Numbered from the stretch's first letter, positions 175 to 54,555 are shown. The stretch is DNA of 64,000 nucleotides from Candidatus Uhrbacteria bacterium (GCA_016188495.1 JACPHU010000010.1:349-64348); one strand, 5' to 3'. Made by a program: numbers and translations. Notes: a model not told the origin generated them from the sequence alone.

Positions 175-325
175 AGAGATCTCTTTCAAAACTCGATGAG
201 ATTGCGGTGCACGGGCTGCTGAGCTACGCGAACCCTATTCAGAATAGGGAGAGCGGAGTCAGCCCGCCCGAACGACTGAACAGAATTGCTCGTCGTTCAG
301 TCGGGCGGGCGGGCGCCGAGATCTC
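175..325 (+). repeat. Family-1 structured palindromic element, divergent copy A with nested hairpin insertion; right end overlaps rnhB stop codon
   Basis: Left arm AGAGATCTCTTTCAAAACTCGATGAGATTGCGGTGCACGGGCTG shares the subterminal motif with copies at 24175, 32135, 45641, 54433; terminal GAGATCTC repeated at both ends. Confidence 0.6.
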
Positions 326-932
326 AAAAATGAAAATTTAATCGATGAATATCACAGAGACCTTGTAAACTAATCGCTTGTTTATGCTCAATCGTTCCAT
401 ATCCTTTATGTTTCTCAAATCCATATCCTGGATATTGTTGGGAAAGAGTCTTCATTAAACGATCCCTAGTGACTTTAGCAATAATAGAGGAAGCGGCAAT
501 AGACTTGACCGATTGGTCTCCACGGATAATCCCTTTTTGAGGACAAGAAAGATCCGGAATCGTCCAGGCATCCACTAACGCATAATCAATCCCTGACAGA
601 TCTTCCACAGCCCGGCGCATGGCCAAATAATTTGCTTGTCGAATACCCAAGGCATAAATCTCATCCACACTCGCACTCCCAATACTCCACGCAACGGCTC
701 GTGCAGTAATTAATGTATAAAGCTCTTCACGTTGAGATTCGCTTAAAAGCTTACTGTCTCTCAGTCCTCCAATACGAGAATTTAAAGGTAAAATAACCGC
801 TCCCGCCACTACAGGGCCAGCCAAAGCCCCGCATCCTGCTTCATCCACGCCAACAATTCTTCGATACCCGTGACCCGCAAGCATTCGTTCGTATTTAAAT
901 GTGGGAACTGTTTTGATTGACATGAAACTCAA
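324..932 (-). CDS. rnhB: ribonuclease HII
   Basis: 202-aa ORF; N-terminal '[21 protein letters not shown]' RNase HII catalytic motif and overall RNase HII layout. Confidence 0.9.
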
Positions 933-1000
933 TTTTTCCTAATATATTGACGTATTTCTTTATCAGGATCGCCCAACGATCTTTTATACCCACATTCATT

Positions 1001-2992
1001 ATGACCATTATACAGTACGCTTTAGCCGCCGGAGTCCTTGCTATTGCCTGGGGCGCTGTTCTCACCCAATGGATTCTTAAGCGTCCCGCAGGAGAAGGAA
1101 AAATGAAAGGTATTGCCCTTGCTATCCAAGAAGGAGCCAATGCTTACATGGCCCGTCAATATAAAATGATCACCCTCATTGGAATAATCATCTTCCTGAT
1201 TCTCGGTTTTACCCTTACCTGGACCCTTGCCCTTGGTTTTCTTGTAGGAGCCGTTCTCTCTGGACTTGCCGGATATATCGGTATGTCTGTTTCTGTCCGG
1301 GCCAATGTGCGTACAACAGAAGCGGCAAAGAGCGGACTGTCCCAAGCCCTTGACGTAGCGGTCCGCGGTGGAACCGTCACCGGACTGTTAGTGGTGGGAC
1401 TCGCCTTATTGGGAGTCACTGGCTTCTATGCCCTTACCATGGATATCTCCGCATTGATTGGTCTTGGATTCGGCGGATCTCTTATCTCCGTCTTTGCCCG
1501 ACTTGGTGGAGGAATCTTCACAAAAGCGGCTGACGTAGGAGCTGACCTGGTTGGAAAAACAGAAGCAGGTATCCCGGAAGATGATCCACGCAACCCAGCC
1601 GTGATTGCCGACAACGTCGGTGATAACGTCGGTGATTGTGCAGGAATGGCTGCTGACTTGTTTGAAACCTATGCCGTCACTCTTGTGGCTACCATGGTCT
1701 TAGGAAACCTTCTTGCCCCAAACTCCGATGTGCTTGTGATGTATCCTCTGGCTCTTGGATCTATCGCCATCGTTGCCTCCATCATTGGAACATTTTTCAT
1801 TAAACTCGGTAAAAGCCAAAACATCATGGGGGCCTTGTATAAAGGTCTCGCTGCTGCCGGAGTACTGGCGGCTGTAGGATTTTGGTTCATCACAAAAGGA
1901 TTTAATTTTTCCGGAACAGGAATGGAAGCAATGCCTTTGTTCTGGTCAGCCCTCCTTGGTCTTGCTGTCACAGGTTTTTTGATTGTCATCACAGAATATT
2001 ACACAGCCACGCACTATAAACCGGTTCAAAAACTCGCAGAAGCTTCACAATCAGGACACGGAACCAACATCATTGCAGGTCTGGCTCTTTCCATGAAATC
2101 AACAGCCCTGCCAGTGATCACAATCGTTGCTGGAATCTTAATTGCCTATGATCTTGCAGGACTTTACGGAATTGCCATTACCGCCGTTGCAATGCTTTCT
2201 TTGACAGGAATCATTGTGGCTATGGATGCTTATGGTCCTATCACAGACAACGCCGGCGGAATTGCAGAAATGAGCGATCTCCCTCCTGAAGTTCGCGCGG
2301 TCACAGATCCATTGGACGCCGTTGGAAACACCACCAAAGCCGTAACCAAGGCTTACGCCATCGGCTCAGCAGGACTTGCCACGCTCGTGTTATTTGGCGA
2401 CTACGTTCATACCATTGAAGCCACTGGGGCAAAAATCGTCTTTAGTCTTGTGGATCCACAAGTGATTGCAGGACTCTTTATCGGCGGACTTATTACATAT
2501 CTTTTCGCCGCTATGGCAATGGAAGCGGTAGGAAAAGCCGCGGGTGCGGTTGTGGAAGAAGTTCGACGTCAGTTCCGTGAAATTCCAGGAATCATGCAAG
2601 GAACCGCTAAACCAGAATATGGAAAAGCCGTAGATATCGTGACAGCCTCAGCCGTCAAATACATGATTGCCCCTTCATTACTAGCTGTATTTTCTCCTGT
2701 AATTGTAGGATTTGGATTAGGAGCCGAGGCTCTTGGAGGATTATTGATTGGTTCCATTATCACAGGACTGTTTGTAGCCGTTTCTATGACCACAGGCGGT
2801 GGGGCGTGGGACAATGCAAAAAAATACATTGAAGCAGGAAACTACGGTGGAAAAGGATCTGATGCCCACAAAGCCGCGGTAACTGGTGATACGGTTGGTG
2901 ATCCATACAAAGACACTGCCGGACCTGCCATCAACCCAATGATTAAAATTCTCAACATTGTAGCCCTCCTGATCGTAGCTCTGATTGTCTAA
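1001..2992 (+). CDS. hppA: membrane-bound proton-translocating pyrophosphatase (H+-PPase). Start set at the internal ATG ([11 protein letters not shown]...) rather than ORF-track 947.
   Basis: Motifs '[43 protein letters not shown]' and '[18 protein letters not shown]' are diagnostic of V-type H+-PPases; multi-TM protein about 660 aa. Confidence 0.9.
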
Positions 2993-3003
2993 GTGTAAAA
3001 AAT

Positions 3004-3038
3004 AAAACACCTTGGCTAAAAAGCTGTGGTGTTTTTTT
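3004..3038 (+). terminator. rho-independent terminator after hppA
   Basis: AAAACACC...GGTGTTTTTTT stem-loop plus T-run. Confidence 0.6.
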
Positions 3039-3092
3039 AATTTAAGAAGGTAATGAAACTCCCCGCGAGCCAAGCTGACGGGGTATCAGGCT

Positions 3093-3141
3093 GCATATTC
3101 CCTGAGCGGAGGAACGTTGCGACGAACCGTAGTCGAAGGGT
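3093..3141 (+). repeat. Family-2 short dispersed repeat, copy a
   Basis: GCATATTCCCTGAGCGGAGG...GTAGTCGAAGGGTG; same conserved ends as copies at 18047, 31945, 44791(-), 52374. Confidence 0.7.
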
Positions 3142-3282
3142 GCAAATACAGCCTTCGACGGATTCGACCATTCGACAAGCTCATGGCAGGCAGCTCACCG
3201 CAGACAGGCTCAGGCAATAAAATACGCAGCCGTTCGATCTACTCACGACAGGCAAGCTGACGGGGTATTTACCCTGAGGGAA

Positions 3283-3311
3283 TAAAAAACGACTCTCCAT
3301 CAGAGAGTCGT
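3283..3311 (-). terminator. rho-independent terminator for minus-strand gene 3341..3913
   Basis: CGACTCTC-CATCAG-AGAGTCG hairpin followed (on minus strand) by T-run. Confidence 0.55.
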
Positions 3312-3340
3312 CACGTGAACCGGAAAGAAAAAATTCTTGA

Positions 3341-3913
3341 CTATCCCTGGTCGACCTGAGCCAGTGGTCGATATCGACACTCTCCGAACTCTACGCCCGA
3401 CGACTGAGCAAAGGTGTCCAGAAGTTTCCGGTACTCGGTCTTGATCACCGTACGGGAAGACACCCTGTCAAACTCGGTCACCCCATGCAGATAGATCACG
3501 TTGTCTGGTTCCAATTCTGTACCGCCCCACCAGATCTGTATGCGATACATACCGTCGGACATTCCCCCTATCCTTTCGATGCTCTTAGCCCCCATGTTTC
3601 GAAACTGCTTTATGAGTAGAAGTGCACTGTTCGTCATGGGTATACTGAATGAACAGTCCGACGGCGGGGTAATATTGATGCGGAACGAACCATCTAAAGA
3701 CAACGAATCCTCCGCCAAGGGCACAGTTTCCAACTCAACGAGCACTCTATCCTTCAATGACGTAAGCTTCTGGAACTCCACCTGGAATTCGGTCACGACA
3801 GGAGGAACAGTTAACCCTTCCTCTGCGAGTTGGTTAAGATATCCCAACACCGCATCGAAAGAAAATCTAAAACCATCCGCCACGTGATTACGCACACCGA
3901 GCTCTTTGGACAT
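3341..3913 (-). CDS. hypothetical protein (190 aa), first gene of the candidate island, divergent from the rest
   Basis: Long ORF with no recognizable motif; divergently oriented relative to 4091..; downstream terminator present. Confidence 0.5.
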   Translation of the reverse strand: MSKELGVRNHVADGFRFSFDAVLGYLNQLAEEGLTVPPVVTEFQVEFQKLTSLKDRVLVELETVPLAEDSLSLDGSFRINITPPSDCSFSIPMTNSALLLIKQFRNMGAKSIERIGGMSDGMYRIQIWWGGTELEPDNVIYLHGVTEFDRVSSRTVIKTEYRKLLDTFAQSSGVEFGECRYRPLAQVDQG

Positions 3914-4006
3914 GACGTTCTCTTTTTATTAAGGAGTGTTCGTAAATCCGTAGTTTTACTTCCAGGACGGCAGGAAGTTGAAAATATATTACTTTCTTCA
4001 ATTTTT

Positions 4007-4022
4007 GTCAAGTATTCTTGAC
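4007..4022. promoter_or_regulatory. 16-bp perfect palindrome GTCAAG-TATT-CTTGAC in divergent intergenic region (candidate operator / -35 overlap)
   Basis: Seen directly; lies between divergent ORFs 3341..3913(-) and 4091..6073(+); contains TTGAC -35-like hexamer. Confidence 0.35.
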
Positions 4023-4090
4023 TTTTTTACCTTCAAAATTTACACTCACCCCTCGTTCTTTTACAAGTAAAACTGCTTAAGGAGCTAAAA

Positions 4091-6073
4091 ATGGCAAAAA
4101 AAGTTGGACTTAGCAATCGAGACAGACAAACCGCTCTGGTTCACGCGACATTTAATCATGGCAATTCTCTCTCAGGCAACGTAAAAAAAGTTCCTGGAAC
4201 TTTTTCAGATACCACGAGTCTTCAAACACAGTGGTTTCTAGAAAACACACAAACAACGGCCATGAAGGACGCCCTGCTCATACAACAGGTGCTCATGCGT
4301 ATGGTAAGGATGAAAAAAACCCAAAGAAATACCCTGTCAGAACCGGAACTTTTAGAAAAACTGGTAAACCGACTCATCAAAATAGCACGGCCGGAAATTA
4401 TTTCTTATCTGGAAGAAACAGAAAAACATCATCTCTATTTTAATGATTTAAACCAGATGATGTCTGTTTTTTCCTGGATTCAAAAAAAGGTGGGGGAAGA
4501 ACTTGGATATAAAGGTGGGGGAAGACAAATCCCCGGCAGCAACCATAGAGCAAAAGATGATGTCTTTTGGAAAAACGTTTATTCCATGAGCTGCCAGCTC
4601 TTTGGATTTTTCCAAGATCATTGGGGATGCTTCTGCACAGAAAAGGAAGCGGTCCCTATTCAGTCGGCCCAGATAACGATTCGCGCGTTTGAAATTATCT
4701 ACAAACTCATGAGCACTGTGCCTCCCTGCAAAGTACTTCGTCTGGTCCAAAGCGCCCATCAGGCAAGAATAGACTTACAGCAGATAGAACGTATTGCTCT
4801 GAGTCATATCCCCATGCGAATAGACGATTTCATCCAGCTTATGGCTGATAAAATCCTTACGCCAAAAACAAGCATACTCTTCCTCAAGTATCCGGAACTC
4901 ATTGACGCACTCTCTTATGAAGGAATCCGACATCTTTTCAGACGATGGAAAGAATCCGAGAGGAAAACAAATATCCTTGTCTTTGCCCAATCGATCAGAC
5001 AGGAACTGTATCCCGATACGCTTCCAGACGGAATAAAAACGGAGTGGGAGATATTGGAACATCCGCGATTATTTTCATTCCTTCATGCGTTGCACGGAAC
5101 AACACAAGGAGAAATATCCTTTTCTTTTCCTGACCACGCCTACGCACCCGGTCTCTATACACCCAGTAATGCGATGATCCTTCTTCCTAAAACGGTTCCG
5201 ATGCTTGTCGCAAGGCAGGACCAACCCCTGATCCAAGCATCACCTCGCCAAGAAGAAGGCGAGTATGATTACCCTATTCTCGATCTGGATGAAGATGAGA
5301 ATGAATCTGATGCACTGACTCAGATAACGTGTATACAGACCGCAGAAAATTTCTTCTGTGAAGAAGTTTTCTCTCTCTGGACGGAACGAGCGGAAGCCTA
5401 TTCAGCGTCACATGAGAATCCTTGCCTACTCACTTCAAAATCGGAAACCTCTCTTTGGGAAGAATCTGCTGATGTGGAAAATCCCTGGGACGTTGTTATC
5501 TATCTGATCGAAGAAGATCTGAAAGAAAAGCTTGTTGCTTCTGCGACTGAAGATCCTGATCTAGTGGATTTGATGCAAGAAATGCAAGCCGTTCATCGTT
5601 TGCTAAACTTCGCTCGCGCGGGAGATGCTGAGGGAGTCCTCGATTGTTGGGCCTCCTGGATCGATCCCATCCGCGGTCGAATAAAAAAACTCGATGGGCG
5701 ACTTAAACAGACAGAGAAAGAGGTAACGATTTCAACTCTCTTGAAAGAAGAGGTTCTGCCAATTTCTCTGGTGGAGGAGTGTGAAACAGAAGAAATGACC
5801 GTACAGGAAACACCTGCGGTCTCCCTCCAAATACAAGAACCTTCTCCTGTCCAAGAATTGACACCCAGCGTGGAAATCCCTGCTGAAAGTCAACTCGTGA
5901 CACAGACAAGGGAACTCCTTGCTAAGCTACCTGTGGGATCCATGCGCAAACAGCTTAAGAAAAAGCTGGATACGCTCATCGGGGAAGCGACGCAAGGCGA
6001 AGGCGCATCCCTAAAAGCAGCCTTCACACATCTGCAGGGAGAAATCCAAAGCCTGCTTGACGTTATTTCCTAA
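4091..6073 (+). CDS. hypothetical protein (660 aa), acidic C-terminal region, no recognized domain
   Basis: Long uninterrupted ORF directly upstream of the SNF2-MTase gene; C-terminal Glu/Asp-rich low-complexity segment. Confidence 0.55.
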   Translation: MAKKVGLSNRDRQTALVHATFNHGNSLSGNVKKVPGTFSDTTSLQTQWFLENTQTTAMKDALLIQQVLMRMVRMKKTQRNTLSEPELLEKLVNRLIKIARPEIISYLEETEKHHLYFNDLNQMMSVFSWIQKKVGEELGYKGGGRQIPGSNHRAKDDVFWKNVYSMSCQLFGFFQDHWGCFCTEKEAVPIQSAQITIRAFEIIYKLMSTVPPCKVLRLVQSAHQARIDLQQIERIALSHIPMRIDDFIQLMADKILTPKTSILFLKYPELIDALSYEGIRHLFRRWKESERKTNILVFAQSIRQELYPDTLPDGIKTEWEILEHPRLFSFLHALHGTTQGEISFSFPDHAYAPGLYTPSNAMILLPKTVPMLVARQDQPLIQASPRQEEGEYDYPILDLDEDENESDALTQITCIQTAENFFCEEVFSLWTERAEAYSASHENPCLLTSKSETSLWEESADVENPWDVVIYLIEEDLKEKLVASATEDPDLVDLMQEMQAVHRLLNFARAGDAEGVLDCWASWIDPIRGRIKKLDGRLKQTEKEVTISTLLKEEVLPISLVEECETEEMTVQETPAVSLQIQEPSPVQELTPSVEIPAESQLVTQTRELLAKLPVGSMRKQLKKKLDTLIGEATQGEGASLKAAFTHLQGEIQSLLDVIS

Positions 6074-6210
6074 TGCACGCCTCAAGACCGTCCTTTTATA
6101 AAAAGGGCGGTTTTTAATAGACAAAATCAAAACTCTCTGCTAAAAACAGGGGTCGCGTAAAGACCTCTCTCTTAACGCGAAGCCCTTTCCAAACCAACGG
6201 AGCGATACCC

Positions 6211-9396: not shown

Positions 9397-9484
9397 GATG
9401 CGCACGCATCTCTTTTTTATTGACCAGATTCAGCAAAATTGTTAGGATTTTTTCTTACAACTTTTGTAAGAAAAGGAGGAGATC

Positions 9485-11759: not shown

Positions 11760-11800
11760 ATCTTTCACCTATTTTTGCAAAAAAATATCATCAATTTGTT

Positions 11801-13090
11801 ATGCCAAACGTTGAAAAAGAATCCTTAGAAAAAAATATCCTCAAGCTCACGTTCACTATTACCCAAGAAGAGGCCCAACCTTATTTTGAGGAGGCTGCGA
11901 AACGGATTTCCCAACAAACTTCCATTCCAGGATTTCGCCCAGGACATGCGGACTATGCGGTTGTGAAACAACGTGTGGGAGAAATGAAAATCATGGAAGA
12001 GGCTTTAGAAAGCCTGGTCCGCAAATCGTTTGTTGAGACCATTCTTGCTGAGAATATCGATACCGTCGGTTCTCCTAAAGTGGACGTGATTAAACTTGCC
12101 CCAGGCAACGATGTTGTCTTCACCGCAGAAGTTACTCTCATGCCTAAAGTTAAAAGTCTTGCCGACGTAAAAAAACTCAGCGTAAAAGCTCAAACAGCCC
12201 ATGTTGAAGACAAAGAAATCGATTTGGCTTTGAGAGATCTTCAGCGTATGAGAACCACCGAAGTCCGTGCCACAGCAGAAAAAACGACAACCCAAAAAGA
12301 TAAAGTGGTCATTGCGATGAACATGAAGCTTGATAATGTTCCTTTGGAAGGAGGACAATCACCCAACCACAGCGTTTATTTGAATGAAGAATATTACATT
12401 CCAGGATTTAAAGAAAAATTGGAAGGAATGAAAGAAGGCGAAGAAAAATCCTTTACAATCCCCTTTCCAAAAGAACATGCACAAGAATTTTTGGCAGGAA
12501 AAGAGGTCGCGTTTGATGTCACTCTCAAAGAACTTTACCACCTTCAACCCCCTGAATTGGACGACACCTTTGCCGTAACGCTGGGTACAAAAGACATGGC
12601 AACCCTGCGCGAAATCATTCAAAAAAATCTTTTGACAGAAAAAGAACAGGAAACCAAGTCAAAAGAAGAAAAAGAAATGCTCGAGCTCTTGGCAAACAAA
12701 TCTCAATTTGAGGATATTCCCAATCTTCTGATAAATGAAGAAATCAACAAGATGATTCTCGAACTCCAGCGAGGTGTGGAGGCCCAAGGACTTGAATTTG
12801 ATACATATATCAAAAATCTTGGAAAAACGTTGGCACAAATGAAACTCGATTTTACGCCCCAAGCTTTGATGCGTGTAAAAGTAGCTATTGTCATGCGTGA
12901 AATCGCTAAACAAGAAAAAATCGAAGTTGATGAAAAAGAACTCGACGAGGAATTAGACCGCATTGCCGGCCAATACGAAGAAACCAAAACCAAAGAGCAG
13001 GTCTATTCTCCACAATATCGAGACTACATGGAACAGATCCTCCGAAACCGAAAAGTAATAGAACACTTAAGAGGAATCATTATCAAATAA
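11801..13090 (+). CDS. tig: trigger factor
   Basis: N-terminal ribosome-binding region with 'GFRPGH' motif (cf. GFRKGK), length 429 aa, FKBP-like middle and C-terminal chaperone arm-like composition. Confidence 0.85.
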   Translation: MPNVEKESLEKNILKLTFTITQEEAQPYFEEAAKRISQQTSIPGFRPGHADYAVVKQRVGEMKIMEEALESLVRKSFVETILAENIDTVGSPKVDVIKLAPGNDVVFTAEVTLMPKVKSLADVKKLSVKAQTAHVEDKEIDLALRDLQRMRTTEVRATAEKTTTQKDKVVIAMNMKLDNVPLEGGQSPNHSVYLNEEYYIPGFKEKLEGMKEGEEKSFTIPFPKEHAQEFLAGKEVAFDVTLKELYHLQPPELDDTFAVTLGTKDMATLREIIQKNLLTEKEQETKSKEEKEMLELLANKSQFEDIPNLLINEEINKMILELQRGVEAQGLEFDTYIKNLGKTLAQMKLDFTPQALMRVKVAIVMREIAKQEKIEVDEKELDEELDRIAGQYEETKTKEQVYSPQYRDYMEQILRNRKVIEHLRGIIIK

Positions 13091-24106: not shown

Positions 24107-24174
24107 CGATTATTGATCTCTCTTACATATTTTGATACGCTCCATGCCAACAATGAATACAGATTCGAATGAGA

Positions 24175-24306
24175 GAAGTTTTATGCTATGAATGACGAAA
24201 CTCGATGAGATTTGCGTGAACGGGCTGGCAGCCCCATCAGACGTACCCAAACGTACGTCTGATGGGGTGCCTGGGCGCCCGTGAACGCAAAGATCGCGAG
24301 TTTCGT
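24175..24306 (+). repeat. Family-1 structured palindromic element, copy B, ending 3 nt before tRNA-Cys
   Basis: 132-bp imperfect palindrome; outer arms GCTATGAATGACGAAACTCG / CGAGTTTCGTCATTCATAGC perfect; subterminal ATGAGATTTGCGTGAACGGGC vs GCCCGTGAACGCAAAGATCGC asymmetric. Confidence 0.75.
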
Positions 24307-24309
24307 CAT

Positions 24310-24384
24310 TCATAGCTATGGCCACGTGGCGAAGTGGGAACGCAGGGGTCTGCAAAACCTCGATGAGTCGGTTCAATCCCGACC
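24310..24384 (+). tRNA. tRNA-Cys (anticodon GCA)
   Basis: Cloverleaf folded by hand: acceptor GGCCACG/CGTGGCC, anticodon stem GGGGT/ACCTC with loop CTGCAAA, T-arm GTCGG-TTCAATC-CCGAC, encoded CCA. Confidence 0.8.
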
Positions 24385-24466
24385 GTGGCCTCCAACAAAA
24401 AACGATAGAAATTTCTATTGTTTTTTGTTATTATATACAAGGAATTAAATTTGAATCTCTGCATTT

Positions 24467-24736
24467 ATGTCTTTAGAAAAAAAGGAAGGTTTTCCTGATT
24501 CATTGGTTGAGTTTAAACAAAAAATTCGAGATTTTTCAGACAGAAACGACAGTGATGAAAAAATGTCGGAAACTAAAAGAAATTTAGAATTACTCCTCTC
24601 TTCTTTAGAAATTCTTATTTCTGAAGCTGCTTCAAAGGACGATAAGGCTTGGAGATACGATGATTTGAAAAAACAATTAGAAGGTTGTAATGAAGTTTTG
24701 AGGGATATGGGTTTAAAAATCGAATTTCTAAATTAG
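24467..24736 (+). CDS. hypothetical small protein (89 aa)
   Basis: ORF only. Confidence 0.35.
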   Translation: MSLEKKEGFPDSLVEFKQKIRDFSDRNDSDEKMSETKRNLELLLSSLEILISEAASKDDKAWRYDDLKKQLEGCNEVLRDMGLKIEFLN

Positions 24737-24762
24737 ATTCTAATTTAGAAGAAAAAAACGAC

Positions 24763-25206
24763 TTAGAGAGTCGTTTTTTGAATCCGTTCCAATATTTCTG
24801 GTAGAGGTTCTTTGGTGAGGAGTTTTGGAATTTTTTCTACGAGTCGTTTCTGTACATCGTTATGGAATGCTTCCGTAAATTCGTTCAGATGTTCATGTGG
24901 GGCCGTGAGGATTAGCTCTTCGTAGCTGTGCTGCTGTAGGCGATGAAGAAGCTCTTTGGCAAGAATTTGAGAGAAGCGTCGTTCTTTTTCCATGCCAAGA
25001 TTTTCACTTTGTTCAGCAGAGTGCATGCCGCTTGGGGTCATGGTTGAAGTGCGCTCAAGGTTATCTTTTGGAGGATAATCGATCGTAATTTCTCCGGATG
25101 GCTGGATTTCTCGTTGGTGTAACGAGAAAAAGAGTGCGTGTTCGCCATCGGCAACCACTAGGAGAGTTGGCTTTTCATATGGAAGCAGGGGTTCTGGGAT
25201 GTGCAT
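24763..25206 (-). CDS. host-attachment-protein-like (eRF1/Pelota-domain-like) family protein
   Basis: N-terminus 'KPTLLVVADGEHALFFSL' resembles the Host_attach family start 'WVLVADGEKARFF'; assignment by recall only. Confidence 0.4.
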   Translation of the reverse strand: MHIPEPLLPYEKPTLLVVADGEHALFFSLHQREIQPSGEITIDYPPKDNLERTSTMTPSGMHSAEQSENLGMEKERRFSQILAKELLHRLQQHSYEELILTAPHEHLNEFTEAFHNDVQKRLVEKIPKLLTKEPLPEILERIQKTTL

Positions 25207-31944: not shown

Positions 31945-31995
31945 GAATATTCCCTGAGCCTGCCTGCCGTGAGCGTGTCAAACGGTCGAAGGGTC
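31945..31995 (+). repeat. Family-2 short dispersed repeat, copy c
   Basis: GAATATTCCCTGAGCCTGCCTGCCGTGAGCGTGTCAAACGGTCGAAGGGTC. Confidence 0.65.
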
Positions 31996-32128
31996 AAAAT
32001 TCGATGAAAGTAAAACGTTCAAAATTGGATGAGTTGCGCCGGGCTGGAGGAAAAAAATCCGTGAGTCGTAGCCAAATCTACGGCGAACGGATTTTTTCCC
32101 GAGACCCAAGCAGATCGCGGATAATTAT
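31996..32128 (+). repeat. Family-1 element, degenerate copy F (tandem to copy C)
   Basis: Left CAAAATTCGATGAAAG..., right ...AAGCAGATCGCGGATAATT, internal hairpin AAAAAAATCCGT...ACGGATTTTTTC. Confidence 0.45.
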
Positions 32129-32134
32129 TTTAAT

Positions 32135-32261
32135 GAGATCTCTTCAAAAATCGATGAGATTTCGTTGAATGGGGAAATCAGTGATAGAGCCGTATTCAAA
32201 ATACGGTGACGAACCGATGGGGCCCCATGAAACGAAAGATCGCGATTTTTGAAGAGATCTC
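32135..32261 (+). repeat. Family-1 structured palindromic element, copy C, ending 3 nt before tRNA-Ser
   Basis: Outer arms GAGATCTCTTCAAAAATCG / CGATTTTTGAAGAGATCTC perfect 19 bp; subterminal ATGAGATTTCGTTGAATGGGG vs CCCCATGAAACGAAAGATCGCG. Confidence 0.75.
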
Positions 32262-44839: not shown

Positions 44840-44977
44840 GATGATCACCACCACTGCTATCTGATTTGAAGGAACAAATAAGGCATTGAGGTAGAGGGGC
44901 TACTTCTATTTAGAAAATGAAAGTAACACATCAATGCCTTATTTATCCCTTCAAATCATACAAAAGAAGAAAAGACT

Positions 44978-45631: not shown

Positions 45632-45640
45632 AACTGAACG

Positions 45641-45768
45641 AGACTTCTGCAAAACTCGCGATCTTGCCTTTCACGGGCGCCCGTTGACCCCGTTCTCCCT
45701 ACTCTGAGTAGGGTTCTCGGGGCTCAACAGCCCGTTCAAGGCAATCTCATCGAGTTTTGCAGAAGTCT
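45641..45768 (-). repeat. Family-1 structured palindromic element, copy E (minus orientation), overlapping the 3' end of ORF 45671..46969
   Basis: Outer arms AGACTTCTGCAAAACTCG / CGAGTTTTGCAGAAGTCT perfect 18 bp; inner sequence close to copy A/B subfamily. Confidence 0.75.
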
Positions 45769-46969
45769 TTAAAGTGATAGCAATCAGGATCCATGTCATC
45801 ACAGCAAGATCATTTTTGAAATAAGGAACATCGACCAGTCCGTGAATAGTCATTTCCAGTAAAGCAAAAAAGGCGATCGTAGAAATGGGGTCTTTTGGAA
45901 CTTTGATGATCGAATAGGTCAGTAAGAAAAAGGCGATCACTCCCAACAGTCCAAGTTCCACCCAGATGTTTAAGAGAATATTATGCGGGTATTGGAAAAT
46001 TTCAAAATGCGTGGCTCGATGATAAGGAATCAACGCTGTTTGGTATCCAGAAAGTCCTGCTCCTAACACCCAATGATCCTTTAAGAGTTCAACGGTTTCT
46101 GTCCATTGAGACAGACGCACTCCTCCTGAATAATCTTGAAGGGTTAATTTTTGTATCACGAGACCGAGCCATGGAGAAATGAGAATAACGAGAGTCGCCA
46201 GAAGACCCAAGAGAATGGTTTTTTTTCTAGAGCTCTGATCAAAGAGTCCTCGTGCAACGACCGTGGCAACAACGGCAACGACCGCTGCTTCTGATTGAGC
46301 CAGGATAATGGCGGTAAAAGACAAGAGACAGACAAAGATCCAAAACAGATTTTTTTTCAGAAAAGAAATTGTAATTCGCTGTGCGATCAATTCCTGAAAT
46401 CCGATGATGAAGATAGGTCCCAAGAATAATCCTACGGCATTAGGATAATCGAAGACGCTGGTCACGCGGCGTTCAATGTCCCATGGAATAGGAAGACCAG
46501 CACCGGTGATCCACTGAATAATTGCCACACTTCCAATAACCATCGCACTCACTCCCAATGCTTTAAACAGTCCTTGAGAGAGAACGTGTCGATCGTTATG
46601 TCGAATTTCAAAGGAAATAATAAAAAACAGCAAAAAAGGTTCAATAAAATAGGCCTTCCAAATACCCACCGCTGCAACGATTTGGGAGGAAACAGCGATA
46701 GATATTGTGGCGGCTAAAATAAGAAGAAGAATAGTGATAAAGATTCCACGTGGAAACATTGGTGTAAATGGGAGTCTATTTCTTTTTATAAACCAAATAA
46801 TAACAAAGGTCAGAATCAACAGTTCCAGAAGGGTTGTGGGGACTGGTCCCATATACGTTCGCAACAAGTAACTCGGGAGAAGAGCGGTTAACAGAAACAG
46901 TCCTTTGTGAAGATCTTTCCAAGTGAGTACGGCGAAAAGACTCGTGAGAATAAGAAAGACAGTGAGCAT
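45671..46969 (-). CDS. O-antigen ligase/polymerase-like (Wzy_C-type) polytopic membrane protein; last about 32 codons encoded by repeat element E
   Basis: Over 10 TM helices, large periplasmic loop; assignment by topology and neighbourhood with Wzx-like flippase. Confidence 0.45.
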   Translation of the reverse strand: MLTVFLILTSLFAVLTWKDLHKGLFLLTALLPSYLLRTYMGPVPTTLLELLILTFVIIWFIKRNRLPFTPMFPRGIFITILLLILAATISIAVSSQIVAAVGIWKAYFIEPFLLFFIISFEIRHNDRHVLSQGLFKALGVSAMVIGSVAIIQWITGAGLPIPWDIERRVTSVFDYPNAVGLFLGPIFIIGFQELIAQRITISFLKKNLFWIFVCLLSFTAIILAQSEAAVVAVVATVVARGLFDQSSRKKTILLGLLATLVILISPWLGLVIQKLTLQDYSGGVRLSQWTETVELLKDHWVLGAGLSGYQTALIPYHRATHFEIFQYPHNILLNIWVELGLLGVIAFFLLTYSIIKVPKDPISTIAFFALLEMTIHGLVDVPYFKNDLAVMTWILIAITLKTSAKLDEIALNGLLSPENPTQSRENGVNGRP

Positions 46970-46972
46970 AGA

Positions 46973-48388: not shown

Positions 48389-48453
48389 AGTATGGATAGT
48401 GTAGCAGTCTTTGAACAATGTTTTAAAAAATGATATTCTTTTATAAAGATCGT

Positions 48454-50376
48454 ATGCCTTCATTTCTCTTGAGAGAATTACGAAGCTTCTCTTCAAGAGC
48501 CTCGAATCGTTCGTTGGTTTTTTTTGTTTTATTATTCCTGTTTGTCGCAGGATTTTTTTTATTTCCTACAACCGTTGAAGCGGTGGCAAAAAATGGTTTT
48601 GAAGCCTTGCAAGTAAGTCTTCCTAAATCTGGCTTCACGATGAATCCCGGCGAGACGAAGCAGGTATTGATTACCTTTAAGAATATCGGTCAGAAAACAT
48701 GGGCCAACAGTGGAACCGCTTACGTATCCGTTTACACCTACAATCCAAAATACCGTGTCAGTGATTTTAAGGCAGATAATTGGATCGACTATACACAAGC
48801 CTCTGTATTGAAAGAGTCGTCGGTACCTGTGGGTTCTATCGGTTCGATCTATCTCACGCTCCATGCTCCGCAATCTGCGGGAACATATAAGGAAACGTTC
48901 CAATTGGCTGCAGAGGACGCCGCCTGGATTCCTGGAGGAGAGTTTACGTTAACGATCAATGTTCAAAATTCAACCACTCAGGGAGGAACTGGCGAAACGA
49001 CTTCAGAGCAGGTGACGCAGGAAGAACAAAAACAGGTGACAAATGACGGTCAGGCATCCCCACAAACCGATGGACTTTCTGCCACGATTTTGTTGCGTTC
49101 TGCTAAGTCTCTTACCGCTAAAGCAGGAGAGGTTCTCACCTATAAAGTCGGAATTAAAAATACAGGCACTCGTACCTGGACAAAGCGCGAAATTGTCACT
49201 TCCGGGGTAAAAATTGCTTCTTCAGACACGCAGCATTCATCCTGGGTTTCCTCCACAAAATTAGTCGTAAACGAGCAGGGGACCATTAAACCAGGAGGAT
49301 TGGATTTTCTTTCTTTTACCTTTAAAGCCCCTTCCACAAAAGGATCTCAGACGGTTCGTTATCAATTAGCTGTAGACGATGCACTTATTCCAGATTTTTA
49401 TATTGATATTCCAGTGGATGTCACCACAGGGGCTGCAAAAATAAAGGATGAACCCGTGACCGTAAAAGAAGAGGAAGTTCAATCAGATCGTCTTATTGAA
49501 GAGCCTATTGTTCGTATCGGACTACTAACCATCGACGAAGAAACCGATTGGCAGACAGAAGTCTCTTGCAATACAACCTGGCAGATTAAAGACAGTGAAG
49601 GAGGTTTATTAGGAAAAATGCAGGCAGGGGAAATCGTTCGTGCATTTTATAAAAATCAGCGTTATTACTTTAATCGCGGCAAAGGGATAGAACAGACCTA
49701 TAAATATTTGCGATTTGTTCCAGATACCCAAGACGCCGTGTGTACGGTTGAAAATTTTGATCGCCGCAAGACGCGAGGAGCCGCCTATGCGCTCAATAAG
49801 TTTCGAGACACGCTTGAACTTCAATATATTCCTTATAAAAATGAAACATGGCTTATTAACGAGCTTCCTATTGAGGAGTATTTGTATGGGCTGGGTGAAA
49901 CATCCAACGCCTCCCATCAAGAATTTAAAAAGACGCTTATCACTGTTGCCAGAACGTACGGTCTCTATCATTGGGAACGTAACACAAAGCATAAAGGCTA
50001 TTTTCATATGAATGCCTATGCGGATGACCAAGTCTATTTCGGTTATGAATACGAACAGATCCACCCTCTTATTAAACAAGCCGTCGATGACACGAAAGGT
50101 GTGACCGTGAGCTATCAAGGACGCACAGCATTGACTCCTTACTTTTCTCGATCCGATGGCCGTACGCGTTCTTGGAGCGAAGTGTGGGGCGGGGATGTTG
50201 CCTGGCTCATTGGAGTTCCTGCACCGTGTGATAAAGAACGTGGATATACGCTTTGGGGACATGGAGTCGGACTCGGCGCGACAGAAGCTCTGTGTATGGC
50301 AAATAAAGGAAAGACTTGGGAAGAAATTTTGCATTATTTTTACACGGACGTGGATCTGACAAAGCGATGGGAATAA
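48454..50376 (+). CDS. SpoIID/LytB-domain protein with N-terminal Ig-like repeat region
   Basis: C-terminal 'TPYFSRSDGRTRSWSEVWGGDVAWLIGVPAPCD...GHGVGLGATEALCMANKGKTWEEILHYFYTDVDL' matches the SpoIID/LytB domain. Confidence 0.75.
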   Translation: MPSFLLRELRSFSSRASNRSLVFFVLLFLFVAGFFLFPTTVEAVAKNGFEALQVSLPKSGFTMNPGETKQVLITFKNIGQKTWANSGTAYVSVYTYNPKYRVSDFKADNWIDYTQASVLKESSVPVGSIGSIYLTLHAPQSAGTYKETFQLAAEDAAWIPGGEFTLTINVQNSTTQGGTGETTSEQVTQEEQKQVTNDGQASPQTDGLSATILLRSAKSLTAKAGEVLTYKVGIKNTGTRTWTKREIVTSGVKIASSDTQHSSWVSSTKLVVNEQGTIKPGGLDFLSFTFKAPSTKGSQTVRYQLAVDDALIPDFYIDIPVDVTTGAAKIKDEPVTVKEEEVQSDRLIEEPIVRIGLLTIDEETDWQTEVSCNTTWQIKDSEGGLLGKMQAGEIVRAFYKNQRYYFNRGKGIEQTYKYLRFVPDTQDAVCTVENFDRRKTRGAAYALNKFRDTLELQYIPYKNETWLINELPIEEYLYGLGETSNASHQEFKKTLITVARTYGLYHWERNTKHKGYFHMNAYADDQVYFGYEYEQIHPLIKQAVDDTKGVTVSYQGRTALTPYFSRSDGRTRSWSEVWGGDVAWLIGVPAPCDKERGYTLWGHGVGLGATEALCMANKGKTWEEILHYFYTDVDLTKRWE

Positions 50377-51446
50377 AAGAATTTTTTATCTGTTTTTTGA
50401 TGAGTACAGCCGCAGTTTTTCCTGCGGCTGTTTTCGCACAAGAGGTTTCACCACGCGACGCGTTGACATTGATTTATCAAAGTCGTCCGGATTTGCAACG
50501 TGCGTTTGATGCTCAAACAGGTTTGGCGATCGCAGGCACCAACGCAGGGTTTCTATTGGATTTGGAAGATTGGGCAACGCAATACGGATGGATGGAACAT
50601 CCTGAATTGAAGATCTATGCTCCAACACAGGGGGATGGGGTTCCTGTGCGGACGAGCGCAGAAGAGATCGAATCTTCTATCCAAGCGCAGGCATATCTGG
50701 TGATGGATCGCTCCACCGGAAAAATATTGACGGTAAAAAATGAGAATAAAGTGTGGCCTATCGCGAGCCTCACCAAGCTCATGACCGCTTCGGTTGTTTT
50801 GGATCATGATGTTCTGTTAAATAAAACAGCTTCGGTGCTCAACACGGACAATGTGGGGGGTGCGCGATTGTATGTGAATGACGGAGATGAATTTACGGTG
50901 GAAGATCTTTTTTATGCCACGCTTGTAGGTTCAGCCAACAACGCAGCGAACGCTCTTGCTCGAACCACTGGATTATCTCGCGCGGAATTTGTGCAAGAGA
51001 TGAATGCGCGTGCAAAGGTATTGAATCTTGTCCGTACACAGTATGTGGATCCTACAGGAATCGAATTAGGAAACGTTTCAACGGCTCGTGAGATGGCTCG
51101 GGTGGCGCAAATGGCTTTTTCTCAAGACTCTCTTCAGAGATTCACTACAACAGCAACAAAATATATTAGCGATCTTTCTCAAGGGACAACAAAGAAAATG
51201 ACAAATACGAATTGGATGCTTTGGAAACCAGAATATGATGATTTGTATGTGACCGGCGGAAAGACCGGATATCTGATTGAATCGGGATGGAACCTTGTGG
51301 TTTCGCTTCGTCCGATGGAGGGAGATGCAGATAAAGAACTGTTAATCGTTCTGTTTGGTGCAGACTCTCGCGGAGATTCCTTTATCAATGCTGATCGTCT
51401 TGCTACTTGGGCCTGGGAGACCCATGAATGGCAAAAAGTGCAGTAA
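50367..51446 (+). CDS. D-alanyl-D-alanine carboxypeptidase (peptidase S11)
   Basis: SxxK 'ASLTKLMTA', SxN 'SANNAAN', KTG 'GGKTGYL'. Confidence 0.8.
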   Translation: MGIKEFFICFLMSTAAVFPAAVFAQEVSPRDALTLIYQSRPDLQRAFDAQTGLAIAGTNAGFLLDLEDWATQYGWMEHPELKIYAPTQGDGVPVRTSAEEIESSIQAQAYLVMDRSTGKILTVKNENKVWPIASLTKLMTASVVLDHDVLLNKTASVLNTDNVGGARLYVNDGDEFTVEDLFYATLVGSANNAANALARTTGLSRAEFVQEMNARAKVLNLVRTQYVDPTGIELGNVSTAREMARVAQMAFSQDSLQRFTTTATKYISDLSQGTTKKMTNTNWMLWKPEYDDLYVTGGKTGYLIESGWNLVVSLRPMEGDADKELLIVLFGADSRGDSFINADRLATWAWETHEWQKVQ

Positions 51447-51462
51447 CGTTTTGATCTAGAGA

Positions 51463-51502
51463 AAAAAATAAGCGGGAGCTACGGCTCCCGCTTATTTTTT
51501 TC
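51463..51502. terminator. bidirectional intrinsic terminator
   Basis: AAAAAAATAAGCGGGAGCTACGGCTCCCGCTTATTTTTTTC between convergent genes. Confidence 0.7.
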
Positions 51503-52041
51503 TATGTCATTTTTTTCGCTCGTTTTTCTTGTACGAGTCGATTGATGAGTTGTTTTACTTCCTCAGGGTTGTCTATACTTTTAAAGTGAAACCGGCTTTT
51601 TTCTCCTGCGGTTTGTACGAAGACGTTCCCGTAAGTAAAGATCGTCTGGAGGATCCCGCGGATTTCGGCCGTTGTATCTTGGACAGAAGACAGATCTAGT
51701 TCTGAAGCGGTCCGATTGAATAATCCATTTTGCTCGATACTGATAATGCGTTCATTAGTGATAATCCAAGTATCCAGATAGTAATCCGTGAATTCCAGGA
51801 ACGCAAAGAGCCAAATTGAGAGGAAATAAATGCTTCCCAAAATGACCAGAAACGGTCCTATAACGGGATGATCCAGCCATGTTTGAATTGTGTCCCAGAA
51901 ATACCAGGATCCTAAAAGAGGAATTCCTGTCAGGATAGAAAAAGCGGTCACGATCGTAAGGATGGCAAACCATTGCCGGCGCAGAAATGAAACAACATGT
52001 TCATTGGGTCGTTGGTTTGGAAGCTGATGGAGGTTCATCAT
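51502..52041 (-). CDS. membrane-anchored bacterial PH-domain (bPH_2/DUF304) protein
   Basis: Two TM helices then 'WIITNERIISIEQNGLFNRTASELDLSSVQD...NVFVQTAG' bPH_2 pattern. Confidence 0.55.
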   Translation of the reverse strand: MMNLHQLPNQRPNEHVVSFLRRQWFAILTIVTAFSILTGIPLLGSWYFWDTIQTWLDHPVIGPFLVILGSIYFLSIWLFAFLEFTDYYLDTWIITNERIISIEQNGLFNRTASELDLSSVQDTTAEIRGILQTIFTYGNVFVQTAGEKSRFHFKSIDNPEEVKQLINRLVQEKRAKKMT

Positions 52042-52322
52042 AAGGAAGGAAATAAATCTTCATTATAATAATTTACCGTTTTGTCTAAAGAGATTGGGTA
52101 ACTCCAGTCATATTCCATCAGCAGAAAGACGGATCCCGCTACCAGGATAATCGTTCCTCCTGCAAAGATTGTCACGATCAGATACATCCCGAATCCGTAT
52201 ACGCCATATCGAATGAGATGATAGACGTTAAACAGAGCATAGAGCACATAAAAGAGCATATAGGCTCCGTAGACAATCAAAAAAACAGCGATCGGAATAT
52301 TGATGTCTGGAAAATCAAACAT
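52038..52322 (-). CDS. small membrane protein (94 aa)
   Basis: Three hydrophobic helices; overlaps downstream gene start by 4 nt (operon). Confidence 0.5.
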   Translation of the reverse strand: MFDFPDINIPIAVFLIVYGAYMLFYVLYALFNVYHLIRYGVYGFGMYLIVTIFAGGTIILVAGSVFLLMEYDWSYPISLDKTVNYYNEDLFPSL

Positions 52323-52373
52323 AGTAAGTAAATTGTATCACAAAATCTTCAGATAGTTTGGCTCATGAGATTC

Positions 52374-52421
52374 GAATATTCCCTGAGCGAAGCGACCCAT
52401 GGGAGCGGAGTCGAAGGGGTA
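52374..52421 (+). repeat. Family-2 short dispersed repeat, copy f
   Basis: GAATATTCCCTGAGCGAAGCGACCCATGGGAGCGGAGTCGAAGGGGTA. Confidence 0.7.
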
Positions 52422-52423
52422 GT

Positions 52424-53506
52424 TTAAAGCAAAGTTTGTGGTGGGGTATTTAATCCCAAATGTTTGTATCCATGTTCTGTGACAACGCGTCCGCGTGGAG
52501 TACGGGAGAGGAATCCAATTTGAATAAGAAACGGCTCGTGAACTTCTTCAATCGTTTGTATTTCTTCTTGTGTTGAAGCGGCGATTGTTGAGAGTCCCAC
52601 AGGTCCTCCGTTGAATTTTTCAATAATCGTGGAAAGAATCCGTCGATCGGTTTGATCTAATCCGACGTGGTCTACCGCTAGTTTTTCAAGTGCTTCTTTG
52701 CAGATGCGTTGGGAGATATGACCATCTGCCCGGACATCGGCAAAGTCTCGCACGCGTTTGAGAAGTCTGTTGGCAATACGTGGGGTCCGACGTGAACGAC
52801 AAGCCAGGAGATCGATCGCTTCTGGATCAATAGAAACATGGAGCAATCCCGCGCTGCGTTTCACAATTTGACTGATATGACTCTCTTCATAAAAATTTAA
52901 ATGATGAGTAACGCCAAAGCGATCGCGAAGAGGTGATGTAAGAAGAGAAAGTCGAGTTGTGGCTCCAATAATCGTGAACTTTTCTAAATTCAATCGCAAT
53001 GTTCGGGCTGTTGGACCTTTGCCGACGATGATATCCAAGACGTAGTCCTCCATGGCAGGGTAGAGCACTTCCTCGATCGTTTTGTTGATTCGGTGAATTT
53101 CATCGATAAACAGAATATCTCCCCGATTCAAACTGGAGAGAATGGCGGCTAAATCTCCTACGCGTTCTAAGGCCGGACCCGAGGTAATGCGAATTTGAGT
53201 CCCTATTTCGTTGGCGATAATGTGAGCAAGACTCGTTTTTCCAAGCCCAGGATTTCCATAAAGCAAAACATGTTCAATGGGTTCGTTTCTCTTTTGAGCG
53301 GCTTGGATGAAAATAGAGAGATTATCCTTGATTTCATCTTGTCCGATGAAATCTTTTAAAGACTGCGGACGCAATCCAACTTCAAATGGTTGTTCCTCCG
53401 GAGGAGCTTTTCCCTCCACAATTCGTCCTGGCAGGTTTTCTTCCTCACGTTCGATCATAGTGTCTGTATTATGCCTTCCATTGTTTGCTCTCGCAATAAC
53501 AAACAC
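52424..53506 (-). CDS. ruvB: Holliday junction branch-migration helicase RuvB
   Basis: '[22 protein letters not shown]' Walker A, 'ILFIDEIHR' Walker B, sensor and C-terminal winged-helix pattern. Confidence 0.9.
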
Positions 53507-53548
53507 CCCTGTTTGTAAAGGGGTGTGTCATAAATAGGTTATATTCCA

Positions 53549-53992
53549 TTAACTCAATAAAGAGAGATTTTGATGGATAATGACGGGATGCATTCCTAAG
53601 ATTTCTTCTTTATAGGAAAGTTCAGGGATGGGTTTGAGAAGAAAAATCTTTTTTCTGTGATGAAACGCAAGGCCCATTTCTAAAAGAGTGTTTGCGCCGA
53701 TATAATTCAAAATGCCGTTTTTATCGTGGTTCAAGACCAAAATAGCGTCGGCCCACAGGACTTTTTCAAAATGATTACGCATGGCTTGTTCTTTTGCGTC
53801 CCAAATCCAACCTTCTGTTTCGTTTGTCGTTTTTCGTAGAGCATAATATTCCTTTACCGGCATTGCCTTGCCTTGTTCGTCTAGAATTTCCAATGGAGGC
53901 ATCTGTACCTCATGCCCCGTTGATTCCAGTGTGTTTTTGGCTGCAAGCATTTCATCAATAAAGGCAATGCTTCCACAGAGGGTGATTTTCAT
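53549..53992 (-). CDS. nucleoside 2-deoxyribosyltransferase-like (YtoQ-type Rossmann) protein
   Basis: 'MKITLCGSIAF' start and 'ADAILVLNHD...GANTLLEMGLAFHHRKKIFLL' resemble the NDT-like family; tentative. Confidence 0.4.
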   Translation of the reverse strand: MKITLCGSIAFIDEMLAAKNTLESTGHEVQMPPLEILDEQGKAMPVKEYYALRKTTNETEGWIWDAKEQAMRNHFEKVLWADAILVLNHDKNGILNYIGANTLLEMGLAFHHRKKIFLLKPIPELSYKEEILGMHPVIIHQNLSLLS

Positions 53993-53995
53993 ATT

Positions 53996-54252
53996 TTAGG
54001 TTTTTGGTAACAAGAGATCTAATTCGACTTCCAAATCATCAAACTTTTCTTTAAGCAGTTTTTTACAATCTTTAAGAGCTTTTTTATAGATTTCTTCGCC
54101 AATCATTTCTAAGAAAAATTCAAATATTTTTTCAGCAGCAACAAGACCTATTTTTTCACTTCTTTCGTCTTGGAAGAAACCAATGACATGATTGAGACAT
54201 TTTATTTTTTGTTCTTCAGATTCAAAATCGAATTTATTTTTTTGTCGGACAT
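53996..54252 (-). pseudogene. DUF2164-like small protein, frameshifted in an A7 homopolymer (54237-54243)
   Basis: ATG frame gives MSDKKINSILNLKNKK*. The +1 frame gives ...NKFDFESEEQKIKCLNHVIGFFQDERSEKIGLVAAEKIFEFFLEMIGEEIYKKALKDCKKLLKEKFDDLEVELDLLLPKT, matching DUF2164. A8 instead of A7 would restore a single ORF. Confidence 0.5.
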
Positions 54253-54339
54253 AATTTGTATTGATTATTTCTATTCTACCTTTTGGATTCTGTTATCGTA
54301 AATAATAATAAAGATCCCTCTGTGTAAAGGGATCTTTAT

Positions 54340-54425
54340 TGGTGGGCGAGGCGGGAGTCGAACCCGCACGGAGTTTCCCCCCGGGGATTTTAAGTCCCCT
54401 GCGTATACCATTCCGCCACTCGCCC
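54340..54425 (-). tRNA. tRNA-Leu (anticodon TAA), type II with long variable arm
   Basis: Reverse complement GGGCGAGTGGCGGAATGGTATACGCAGGGGACTTAAAATCCCC...GCGGGTTCGACTCCCGCCTCGCCCACCA; anticodon loop CTTAAAA. Confidence 0.8.
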
Positions 54426-54432
54426 TTACCGA

Positions 54433-54555
54433 GAATGTCACAAAATTCGCGATCTTGTGGTGAATGGGGCCCCATCGGCTCGTCGCCGTACATTTAGGTA
54501 CGACTCTGTCGCCGATCACCCCATTCACCACAACCTCATCGAATTGTGTGACATT
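54433..54555 (-). repeat. Family-1 structured palindromic element, copy D (minus orientation), 7 nt upstream of tRNA-Leu 5' end
   Basis: Outer arms GAATGTCACAAAATTCG / CGAATTGTGTGACATTC (1 mismatch); inner core homologous to copy C (TGAATGGGG...CCGATGGGGCCCCAT). Confidence 0.75.

Follow-up and report, generated by a model that had tools for sequence, protein, structure and literature searches.

Why do long hairpin repeats lie directly in front of tRNA genes in a 64,000-nt stretch of Candidatus Uhrbacteria DNA, the whole of which is called the window below? A sequence-only reading of the window had described a family of palindromic elements and offered mobile elements, tRNA-leader structures or a structured noncoding RNA (ncRNA) as possible identities. 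After comparison of the copies with loci of relatives (numbered with an L), we favor, at a rough probability of 0.55, a non-autonomous mobile element of ~128 nt that is mobilised in trans as one folded strand, which could travel either as single-stranded DNA (ssDNA) or as RNA. The evidence concerns the fold and its covariation, the presence or absence of copies at orthologous sites and the polarity of the copies toward the adjacent genes.

Copies, fold and core

Of the six copies in the window, B, C, D and E are intact, A is truncated, and F is a decayed member of a sister subfamily. Together with the adjoining tRNA genes, all called by ARAGORN and Rfam, they are as follows:

176..325, plus strand: copy A, truncated; partial covariance match, 18 bits; antisense to both flanking genes
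24185..24316, plus strand: copy B, family 1, intact; minimum free energy −96.9, z −14.7; 124 bits
24202-24212 and 24290-24299, plus strand: left core UCGAUGAGAUU and right core AAGAUCGCGA of copy B, which has a 17-bp outer stem
24320..24394, plus strand: tRNA-Cys(GCA), directly 3' of copy B
~31990..32010, plus strand: left-core remnant CAAAATTCGATGAAAG, a fragment only, upstream of copy F
32009..32133, plus strand: copy F, family 2, core UGGAUGAG...AUCGCG, right arm decayed; z −3.2; 18 bits
32135..32261, plus strand: copy C, family 1, intact; cores 32151-32161 and 32236-32245; z −10.3; 115 bits
32265..32355, plus strand: tRNA-Ser(CGA)
45641..45768, minus strand: copy E, family 1, intact; cores 45743-45753 and 45656-45665; z −11.4; 130 bits
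54340..54425, minus strand: tRNA-Leu(UAA)
54431..54558, minus strand: copy D, family 1, intact; cores 54532-54542 and 54447-54456; z −12.0; 110 bits

Each of the four intact copies folds as one rod-like hairpin of ~128 nt (−66 to −97 kcal/mol) and has, relative to shuffled sequences, an RNA-fold z-score between −10 and −15; the covariance-model scores are 110-130 bits. Hairpins had been pointed out before at about these places, and the limits of B and D were refined here. The pair of end motifs formerly ascribed to all six copies is shared by B, C, D and E, but the right motif is deleted from A and F has the core of the sister subfamily. A chance origin of this two-motif pattern in the window is excluded, since by our estimate it is expected far less than once per 64 kb and it was seen four times, each time within a long hairpin.

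From the base inward, the element consists of a ~16-bp outer stem of free sequence, an imperfect core and the inner stems with an apical hairpin. The core comprises 11 nt facing 10 nt, U(C/G)GAUGAGAUU over AAGAUCGC(G/C)A. In the predicted fold, its UCG pairs with CGA and its UGA with UCG, including one U.G pair, leaving one bulged A and tandem G.A/A.G before the inner stems begin. The two motifs had been taken as non-complementary strands of an asymmetric internal loop; in fact, they mostly pair and form an imperfect helix.

Covariation was analysed in an alignment of 55 Uhrbacteria-type copies. Pair-preserving changes on both sides were found in 25 of the 40 consensus pairs, in agreement with the earlier proposal that the structure is conserved through compensatory changes, and 96.8% of the paired cells could pair in comparison with 76.8% after shuffling of the partners and 31-48% in slid controls. 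Outside the core, the ratio of G.U to A.C was 67:19, and the given strand was more stable than its complement in every one of the 55 copies (−81.7 vs −70.4 kcal/mol). The structure is constrained on one strand. The outer arms vary from copy to copy with perfect pairing, as had been claimed, but their sequences are partly subfamily-specific rather than specific to single copies, GAGACCTCTGCAAAAC and CTTGAATTACGAAAC recurring in many of them.

Copies detected by the covariance model alone revealed a second family, in which U-G-G...C-C-A stands where the first family has U-C-G...C-G-A and whose core may be written UGGAUGAG...AUCGC(C/G). One core pair is exchanged in a compensatory way between the families (C-G to G-C), whereas both have the bulged A, the U.G pair and the tandem G.A. 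One copy, L038b (L038 2799-2930), has a left core that is the exact complement of its right core (CTCGCGATCTT), with the bulge and the mismatches erased. Such a rewritten core indicates that template switching within the quasipalindrome occurs at the DNA level; since the mismatches persist in nearly all other copies, they appear to be selected.

The conserved core invites comparison with known RNA and DNA motifs. K-turn, C/D-box and hammerhead cores were rejected because the G.A pairs lack an adjoining 3-nt bulge and GAUGA is not preceded by CU. It is very improbable that the element is a self-cleaving ribozyme or RNA-processing module trimming the tRNA leader. The core of leader copies does lie at a fixed short distance from the tRNA +1 and its GAUGAG superficially resembles the hammerhead CUGAUGAG, but direct reading finds neither the hammerhead C3/U4 nor the GAA strand, neither an Rfam ribozyme nor any other family matched even at E ≤ 10, most copies lie away from tRNAs, and genomes of the candidate phyla radiation (CPR) have an RNase P RNA (PMC8172020).

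Intrinsic terminators or integron attC-like sites hardly deserve credence as explanations. Many copies stand right after stop codons, their hairpins carry unpaired bases, and AAC...GTT adjoins the core in many of them. Many other copies, however, have AAG/CTT, AAA/TTT or AAT/ATT in this place instead of the attC boxes RYYYAAC/GTTRRRY, attC sites have no counterpart of the 13-26 bp of stem beyond the conserved region, and neither cassette arrays nor a nearby intI were seen. A T-tract (at least six T in the 9 nt past the stem) follows only 2 of 56 copies, the orientation to the neighbours is random, and canonical AT-rich terminators are used after the tRNAs of this genome. The features that define REP/BIME and attC sequences, both named in the sequence-only reading, and those of known ncRNAs are either lacking or not demonstrable. 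The commonest outer arm (L099 7380-7396, GAGACTGTTGCAAAAC) presumably resembles the terminal repeat of the IS6/IS26 family, GGCACTGTTGCAAA, which may be chance; no IS6-type 8-bp duplication was seen at the copies of the element.

Mobility and polarity of the copies

A check for presence or absence in relatives, suggested earlier, revealed polymorphism in three filled/empty pairs of orthologous sites: L101/window, L012/L099 and L078/L066. The site in the window is:

11781..11782: empty site, in an A-run within the 5' untranslated region of the gene 11801..13090; the L101 ortholog is filled (130 bp)

In L101, which belongs to Uhrbacteria GW2011_GWF2_39_13, the 130-bp copy has boundaries that coincide with the base of the hairpin. 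The L012 copy lies directly after a TAA stop and the L078 copy in a tRNA-Thr leader, the orthologous sites in L099 and L066, respectively, being empty. In L068 one copy is nested in another and flanked by a TAGG(GA) duplication, and near-identical arm subfamilies recur within one genome. At tRNA-Leu the window and L102 hold, at the same site, different subfamily members of 64% identity between flanks that are 81-99% identical, which fits turnover at a hot spot. As judged from these genome comparisons, the elements are mobile. The possibility that the arms arose as inverted duplications of the target was ruled out, the empty site being without arm sequence. In the L012/L099 pair, tRNA-Val is apparently inverted in place (L012 2704-2780 vs L099 7189-7265) with collinear flanks, and only the L099 version has an element at its 5' side.

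All-against-all BLAST of open reading frames (ORFs) from the non-CPR loci and ~55 CPR loci revealed no recurrent neighbouring protein or transposase. It returned orthologous neighbours and housekeeping paralogues only (ABC ATPases, Hsp70/MreB); the neighbours in the window are likewise housekeeping, and the earlier statement that no transposase is encoded there stands. Since no protein family recurs beside the copies, the element is non-autonomous. No autonomous version was found either, in the form of solo arms or core halves around an ORF.

The position of the copies relative to stable-RNA genes is highly regular. Eleven copies from nine independent loci end 2-5 nt before the tRNA +1, all of them in sense orientation, whereas every copy abutting the 3' end of tRNA-Tyr, tRNA-Gly or 23S rRNA is antisense. 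An independent metagenome scan with the family-2 pattern gave 21 hairpin-forming matches (~15 distinct sequences). Four distinct copies among them precede a tRNA by 2-9 nt, all in sense; two are antisense, one directly at the 3' end of tRNA-His and the other ~8 nt from the 3' end of a 23S gene; and none has its left end toward a stable-RNA gene. The fixed orientation at tRNA 5' ends, noticed originally in the window, is thus repeated in metagenomes, and the rule shared by both sets is that the right end lies toward the stable-RNA gene, from whichever side. Sense copies in leaders combined with antisense copies in trailers are what polar DNA insertion predicts and a function at the transcript level does not; the rule therefore argues for polar insertion of DNA and not for a role in tRNA maturation. 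The idea of a tRNA-leader structure is weakened by this antisense placement at tRNA and 23S 3' ends, by the location of most copies off tRNAs and by the insertion polymorphism.

Within the window, B and C end 3 nt 5' of tRNA-Cys and tRNA-Ser, on the same strand as these genes and at the distances previously given, but D ends 5 nt, and not 7 nt, 5' of tRNA-Leu. An orthologous copy of B is present at the same tRNA in L035. The remaining tRNA gene of the window, tRNA-Gly at 59374, has no element, so three of the four have one beside them. The string TCGATGAG also occurs within tRNA-Cys (24360-24367, variable/T-arm region), probably by coincidence. Just past the terminator of this tRNA lies a segment of ~340 bp (24433-24773) with an 89-aa ORF (24467-24736) that has no Pfam match; L035, although otherwise syntenic, lacks this segment.

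Pile-ups of copies were observed at several tRNAs, as a remnant-F-C series at tRNA-Ser in the window and as tandem copies in L102 and L051. Because the copy nearest to the tRNA is the most intact one in the pile-ups, the same boundary seems to have been hit repeatedly. Copy F, which is 84% identical to L051 2692-2807, a copy likewise adjoining a tRNA, has been pushed away from tRNA-Ser by copy C, and the CAAAATTCGATGAAAG remnant is the third, oldest and outermost member of this series. In L138 (2868-2890) a family-2 copy abuts an apparent isolated tRNA 3' fragment, TTCGACTCCCGCTACCCGCTCCA, which neither ARAGORN nor Rfam calls as a tRNA and which may be an att-like remnant.

Next to protein-coding genes the orientation was random, 16 copies being co-oriented with both neighbours and 15 opposed to both. 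Orientations were also mixed within single 8-kb loci and did not follow the GC skew. These orientations speak against a cis function in mRNAs as well as against insertion coupled to replication, and the latter was rejected. For ~17 copies, a convergent gene has its stop codon within 6 nt of the right end; at such junctions this codon is often T|GA, the GA coming from the element. Copy E adjoins the ATG of a protein gene, as had been reported, although at a distance of 9 nt and not 10 nt. It lies between two co-oriented genes, the upstream one being an ORF of 432 aa (45671..46969, minus strand) with a Wzy_C/O-antigen-ligase domain that has no stop before the element. Some 97 nt are read into E (45671-45768), which gives this ORF its last ~32 codons and the TGA.

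Copy A has kept the left arm, the left core, the 5' half and the terminal GAGATCTC, the right core being deleted, and carries an inserted GC-rich mini-hairpin (264-308). Mini-hairpins of this type, CCGCCCGA...TCGGGCGG (31-45 nt), were also found in L053 (2601-2631 and 5977-6007), only inside copies of the big element and at its G-rich internal loop. They could be a nested second mini-element or an expansion segment.

Altogether, the following course of events can be proposed. The core would serve as the recognition site of a mobilising enzyme encoded in trans, and the paired outer stem would hold both ends together at a fixed distance from it. Insertion would be polar, with the right (3') end joined at gene boundaries, strikingly those of stable-RNA genes, either 2-5 nt upstream of the tRNA +1 or abutting tRNA and 23S 3' ends. 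Older copies would be displaced outward whenever the same tRNA is hit again. An element inserted between promoter and tRNA would then be co-transcribed with the tRNA and afterwards cut off by RNase P.

Probable leader transcription, spread and the presumed moving strand

Two promoter-like sequences were recognized by eye upstream of leader copies, a strict consensus scan being negative for both:

24113..24141, plus strand: promoter-like TTGATC-17-TACGCT, ~43 nt upstream of copy B
54570..54598, minus strand: promoter-like TTGGCG-17-TACTCT, 11 nt upstream of copy D

If these promoters are functional, B and D would be transcribed whole as the leaders of tRNA-Cys and tRNA-Leu. At tRNA-Thr, TTCACA-17-TAyyAT is conserved upstream in both the filled (L078) and the empty (L066) allele; the element lies downstream of it, and the empty leader is ~12 nt long. 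As no promoter fits into 2-5 nt, leader copies would have to be co-transcribed with their tRNA, and with RNase P RNA present in CPR genomes the hairpin would be removed together with the leader. Co-transcription and subsequent removal would make tRNA leaders harmless safe havens where copies persist.

A scan with the exact pattern, limited to one genome per species, gave more than 103 loci, of which ~72 are true hairpins, the others being chance matches in coding DNA. Overall, ~90 relatives were collected, mostly from Uhrbacteria and in places with several copies per 8 kb. Copy B and its flanks are ~86-95% identical to Candidatus Uhrbacteria GW2011_GWF2_39_13, with which the window shares four syntenic blocks of 77-92% identity, so that the window must stem from a relative of this CPR bacterium. 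The same core was found in different stems in Paceibacterota, Saccharibacteria, Chlamydiae/Parachlamydiales and Verrucomicrobiae, as well as in deltaproteobacterial and Syntrophorhabdales metagenome-assembled genomes (MAGs) and one Ezakiella MAG. A similar apical CGUAC...GUACG hairpin is also present across several phyla. L097 (5620-5930) contains two tandem 162-nt units of the Chlamydiae/Verrucomicrobia-type variant, UUUUGAUGAGGUU...AAGAUCGCGA, and L086 (778-886), from the same Verrucomicrobiae contig, a sense copy that precedes the 16S rRNA gene by ~340 nt. Three loci of MHBF01, labelled Lentisphaerae bacterium GWF2_44_16 (L002, L040 and L051), have Uhrbacteria-type copies at most 87% identical to those of the window and with the same tRNA adjacency; these contigs may be CPR DNA misbinned into a Lentisphaerae MAG.

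The family is apparently undescribed. In Rfam 15, only the tRNAs of the window matched at gathering score, nothing relevant matched over copy B at E ≤ 10, and the same held at E ≤ 1 for eight loci from other phyla and for L138. Word searches of the literature (motif strings, CPR repeats, tRNA-upstream palindromes) retrieved no description; the one preprint match was a chance 10-mer. Among 2.9 million viral contigs there was a single true match, beside a large ORF that by eye resembles a phage portal protein, and a phage origin was rejected on account of this single match.

A structured ncRNA family with a host or element function, expressed from tRNA and rRNA units and with its 3' end made by RNase P, is a possible but rather unlikely alternative. 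Such an RNA of ~130 nt might act in trans (as a guide, a sponge, a protein-binding or a retro-mobile RNA) or in cis on the stability or processing of the pre-tRNA, and the dispersed copies would represent secondary spread. The strand-specific fold with its conserved non-Watson-Crick features and several conserved loops speaks for it, as do the recurrence of the core and a similar apical hairpin in several phyla, the uniform sense orientation of the 11 + 4 leader copies that would have to be co-transcribed, and the sense copy in the 16S leader of L086. Copies B and D, moreover, are kept at the same tRNAs in a genome of only 77-92% identity, in which the non-tRNA copies are not kept. On the other hand, copies at tRNA and 23S 3' ends, always antisense, would yield an RNA with a weaker fold and without the core geometry, and, next to protein-coding genes, roughly one copy in two runs antisense to the genes on both sides. 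The tRNA-Val and tRNA-Thr copies are missing in related genomes, and the very long perfect stems of L072 and L074 would be unusual for functional RNAs.

A tentative combination, which we regard as unlikely, is an RNA-active family distributed across phyla that rides in tRNA and rRNA units, is released by RNase P with a precise 3' end, directs or templates its own spread or has a host role, and homes to the boundaries of stable-RNA genes by recognising the terminal helices of these genes. If this holds, the element would be a bacterial counterpart of the small retro- or guide elements linked to tRNAs, and a new conserved RNA motif, made up of bulged A, U.G pair and tandem G.A, would be its protein-binding or catalytic heart.

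An element of IS200/IS605 or REPIN type, in which a hairpin of ssDNA is cut by a Y1 (HUH) transposase or RAYT encoded elsewhere as a single copy, has a low probability. The substrates of TnpA and RAYT are strand-marked hairpins with an extrahelical base or mismatches, and the element likewise folds as a single strand with an extrahelical base and strand-marking mismatches. It is also extragenic, in many cases directly behind a stop codon, and non-autonomous. The nested insertion with its 4-6 bp duplication does not fit, since Y1 transposition makes no such target duplication. Neither end has a conserved target or cleavage tetranucleotide, and there is one long hairpin in place of two REP or two left-end and right-end (LE/RE) hairpins. 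The orientation is not uniform along a locus. A Y1 transposase gene appeared neither in the window nor in ~0.5 Mb of flanking DNA, and a RAYT gene neither in the window nor in ~55 CPR loci; in such a sample, a single-copy gene would probably be missed. The maintenance of a long hairpin by compensatory change has a reported parallel in REPINs (PMC3116915).

The mobilisation of one folded strand in trans, which we still prefer, has several points against it. The mobility is read from genome comparison alone, a mobilising gene not having been found. The three resolved sites have duplications of 0, ~2-4 (ambiguous because of an A-run) and 4-6 bp, inconsistent lengths that point to no known transposition chemistry; neither a constant target-site duplication nor a target motif was found in the flanks of either end. 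The mixed orientations do not fit replication-coupled insertion of ssDNA. The invariance of the core in the family-1 set is partly due to construction, as the search demanded exact motifs, and template switching may partly keep the arms perfect without selection. Some of the taxonomic labels of MAGs may be wrong. Finally, the conserved internal loops and a core and architecture common to several phyla are more reminiscent of a functional RNA than of a MITE, a miniature transposable element with inverted repeats.

The genomes of CPR bacteria are tiny and compact, and the element fills many of their intergenic gaps. Its landing with fixed polarity by tRNA and 23S ends implies a targeting that reads stable-RNA genes; to our knowledge, this would be without precedent among the bacterial miniature elements described so far. 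The core common to distant phyla offers a bait for the partner enzyme. The family is a possible source of error in MAG assembly and when tRNA leaders and gene ends are annotated, and its copies are usable as strain-level markers in uncultured lineages.

Comparison with known systems

The folded single-strand site of attC, with strand-marking unpaired bases and a variable apical part, recalls the element, which differs from it by the lack of an R/L box consensus, of cassettes and of an integrase and by the long additional outer stem.

MITEs of the Correia/NEMIS and ERIC types and the Rickettsia palindromic elements are, like the element, palindromes of 100-150 bp that are insertion-polymorphic and may be co-transcribed, and the Rickettsia elements extend ORFs as copy E does (~32 codons). 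In contrast to them, the arms of the element are not fixed terminal inverted repeats (TIRs), there is no constant TA or other duplication, the pairing with covariation extends over the full length, and the mismatches are strand-specific. A classical MITE of the TIR type, moved by a DDE enzyme, was rejected in view of the many unrelated but always pairing arms and the variable duplications.

With the ends of IS200/IS605 and with palindrome-associated transposable elements (PATEs) the element shares an imperfect hairpin in which an extrahelical base marks the strand, and the polarity of one end to the target. However, it is a single hairpin of ~128 nt without an LE/RE pair, its flanks are heterogeneous, and neither tnpA nor tnpB is nearby.

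The REPIN or REP-BIME sequences served by RAYT are also non-autonomous, extragenic and multi-copy without a linked gene, and REPINs form a long hairpin with compensatory pairing that probably acts as a single strand. A REP unit is a palindrome of 20-40 nt that occurs in inverted pairs with a GTAG-like tetranucleotide, whereas in the element one half pairs with the other, neither half being a palindrome, and a conserved tetranucleotide beside the hairpin is lacking. The conserved part of the element is, unlike in REPINs, an internal imperfect duplex between stems of free sequence, its core occurs in several phyla, and it shows polarity toward tRNA and rRNA genes.

In this last respect, parallels are Tn7 and the CRISPR-associated transposons (CAST) at glmS or tRNA genes, and the eukaryotic Ty3 and TRE5 upstream of tRNA genes, which insert in a fixed orientation and at a short set distance into a safe haven that may be hit repeatedly. 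These are large autonomous elements with known target selectors, whereas the element described here, landing 2-5 nt from the mature tRNA 5' end or at the 3' end, is a 128-nt non-coding bacterial hairpin.

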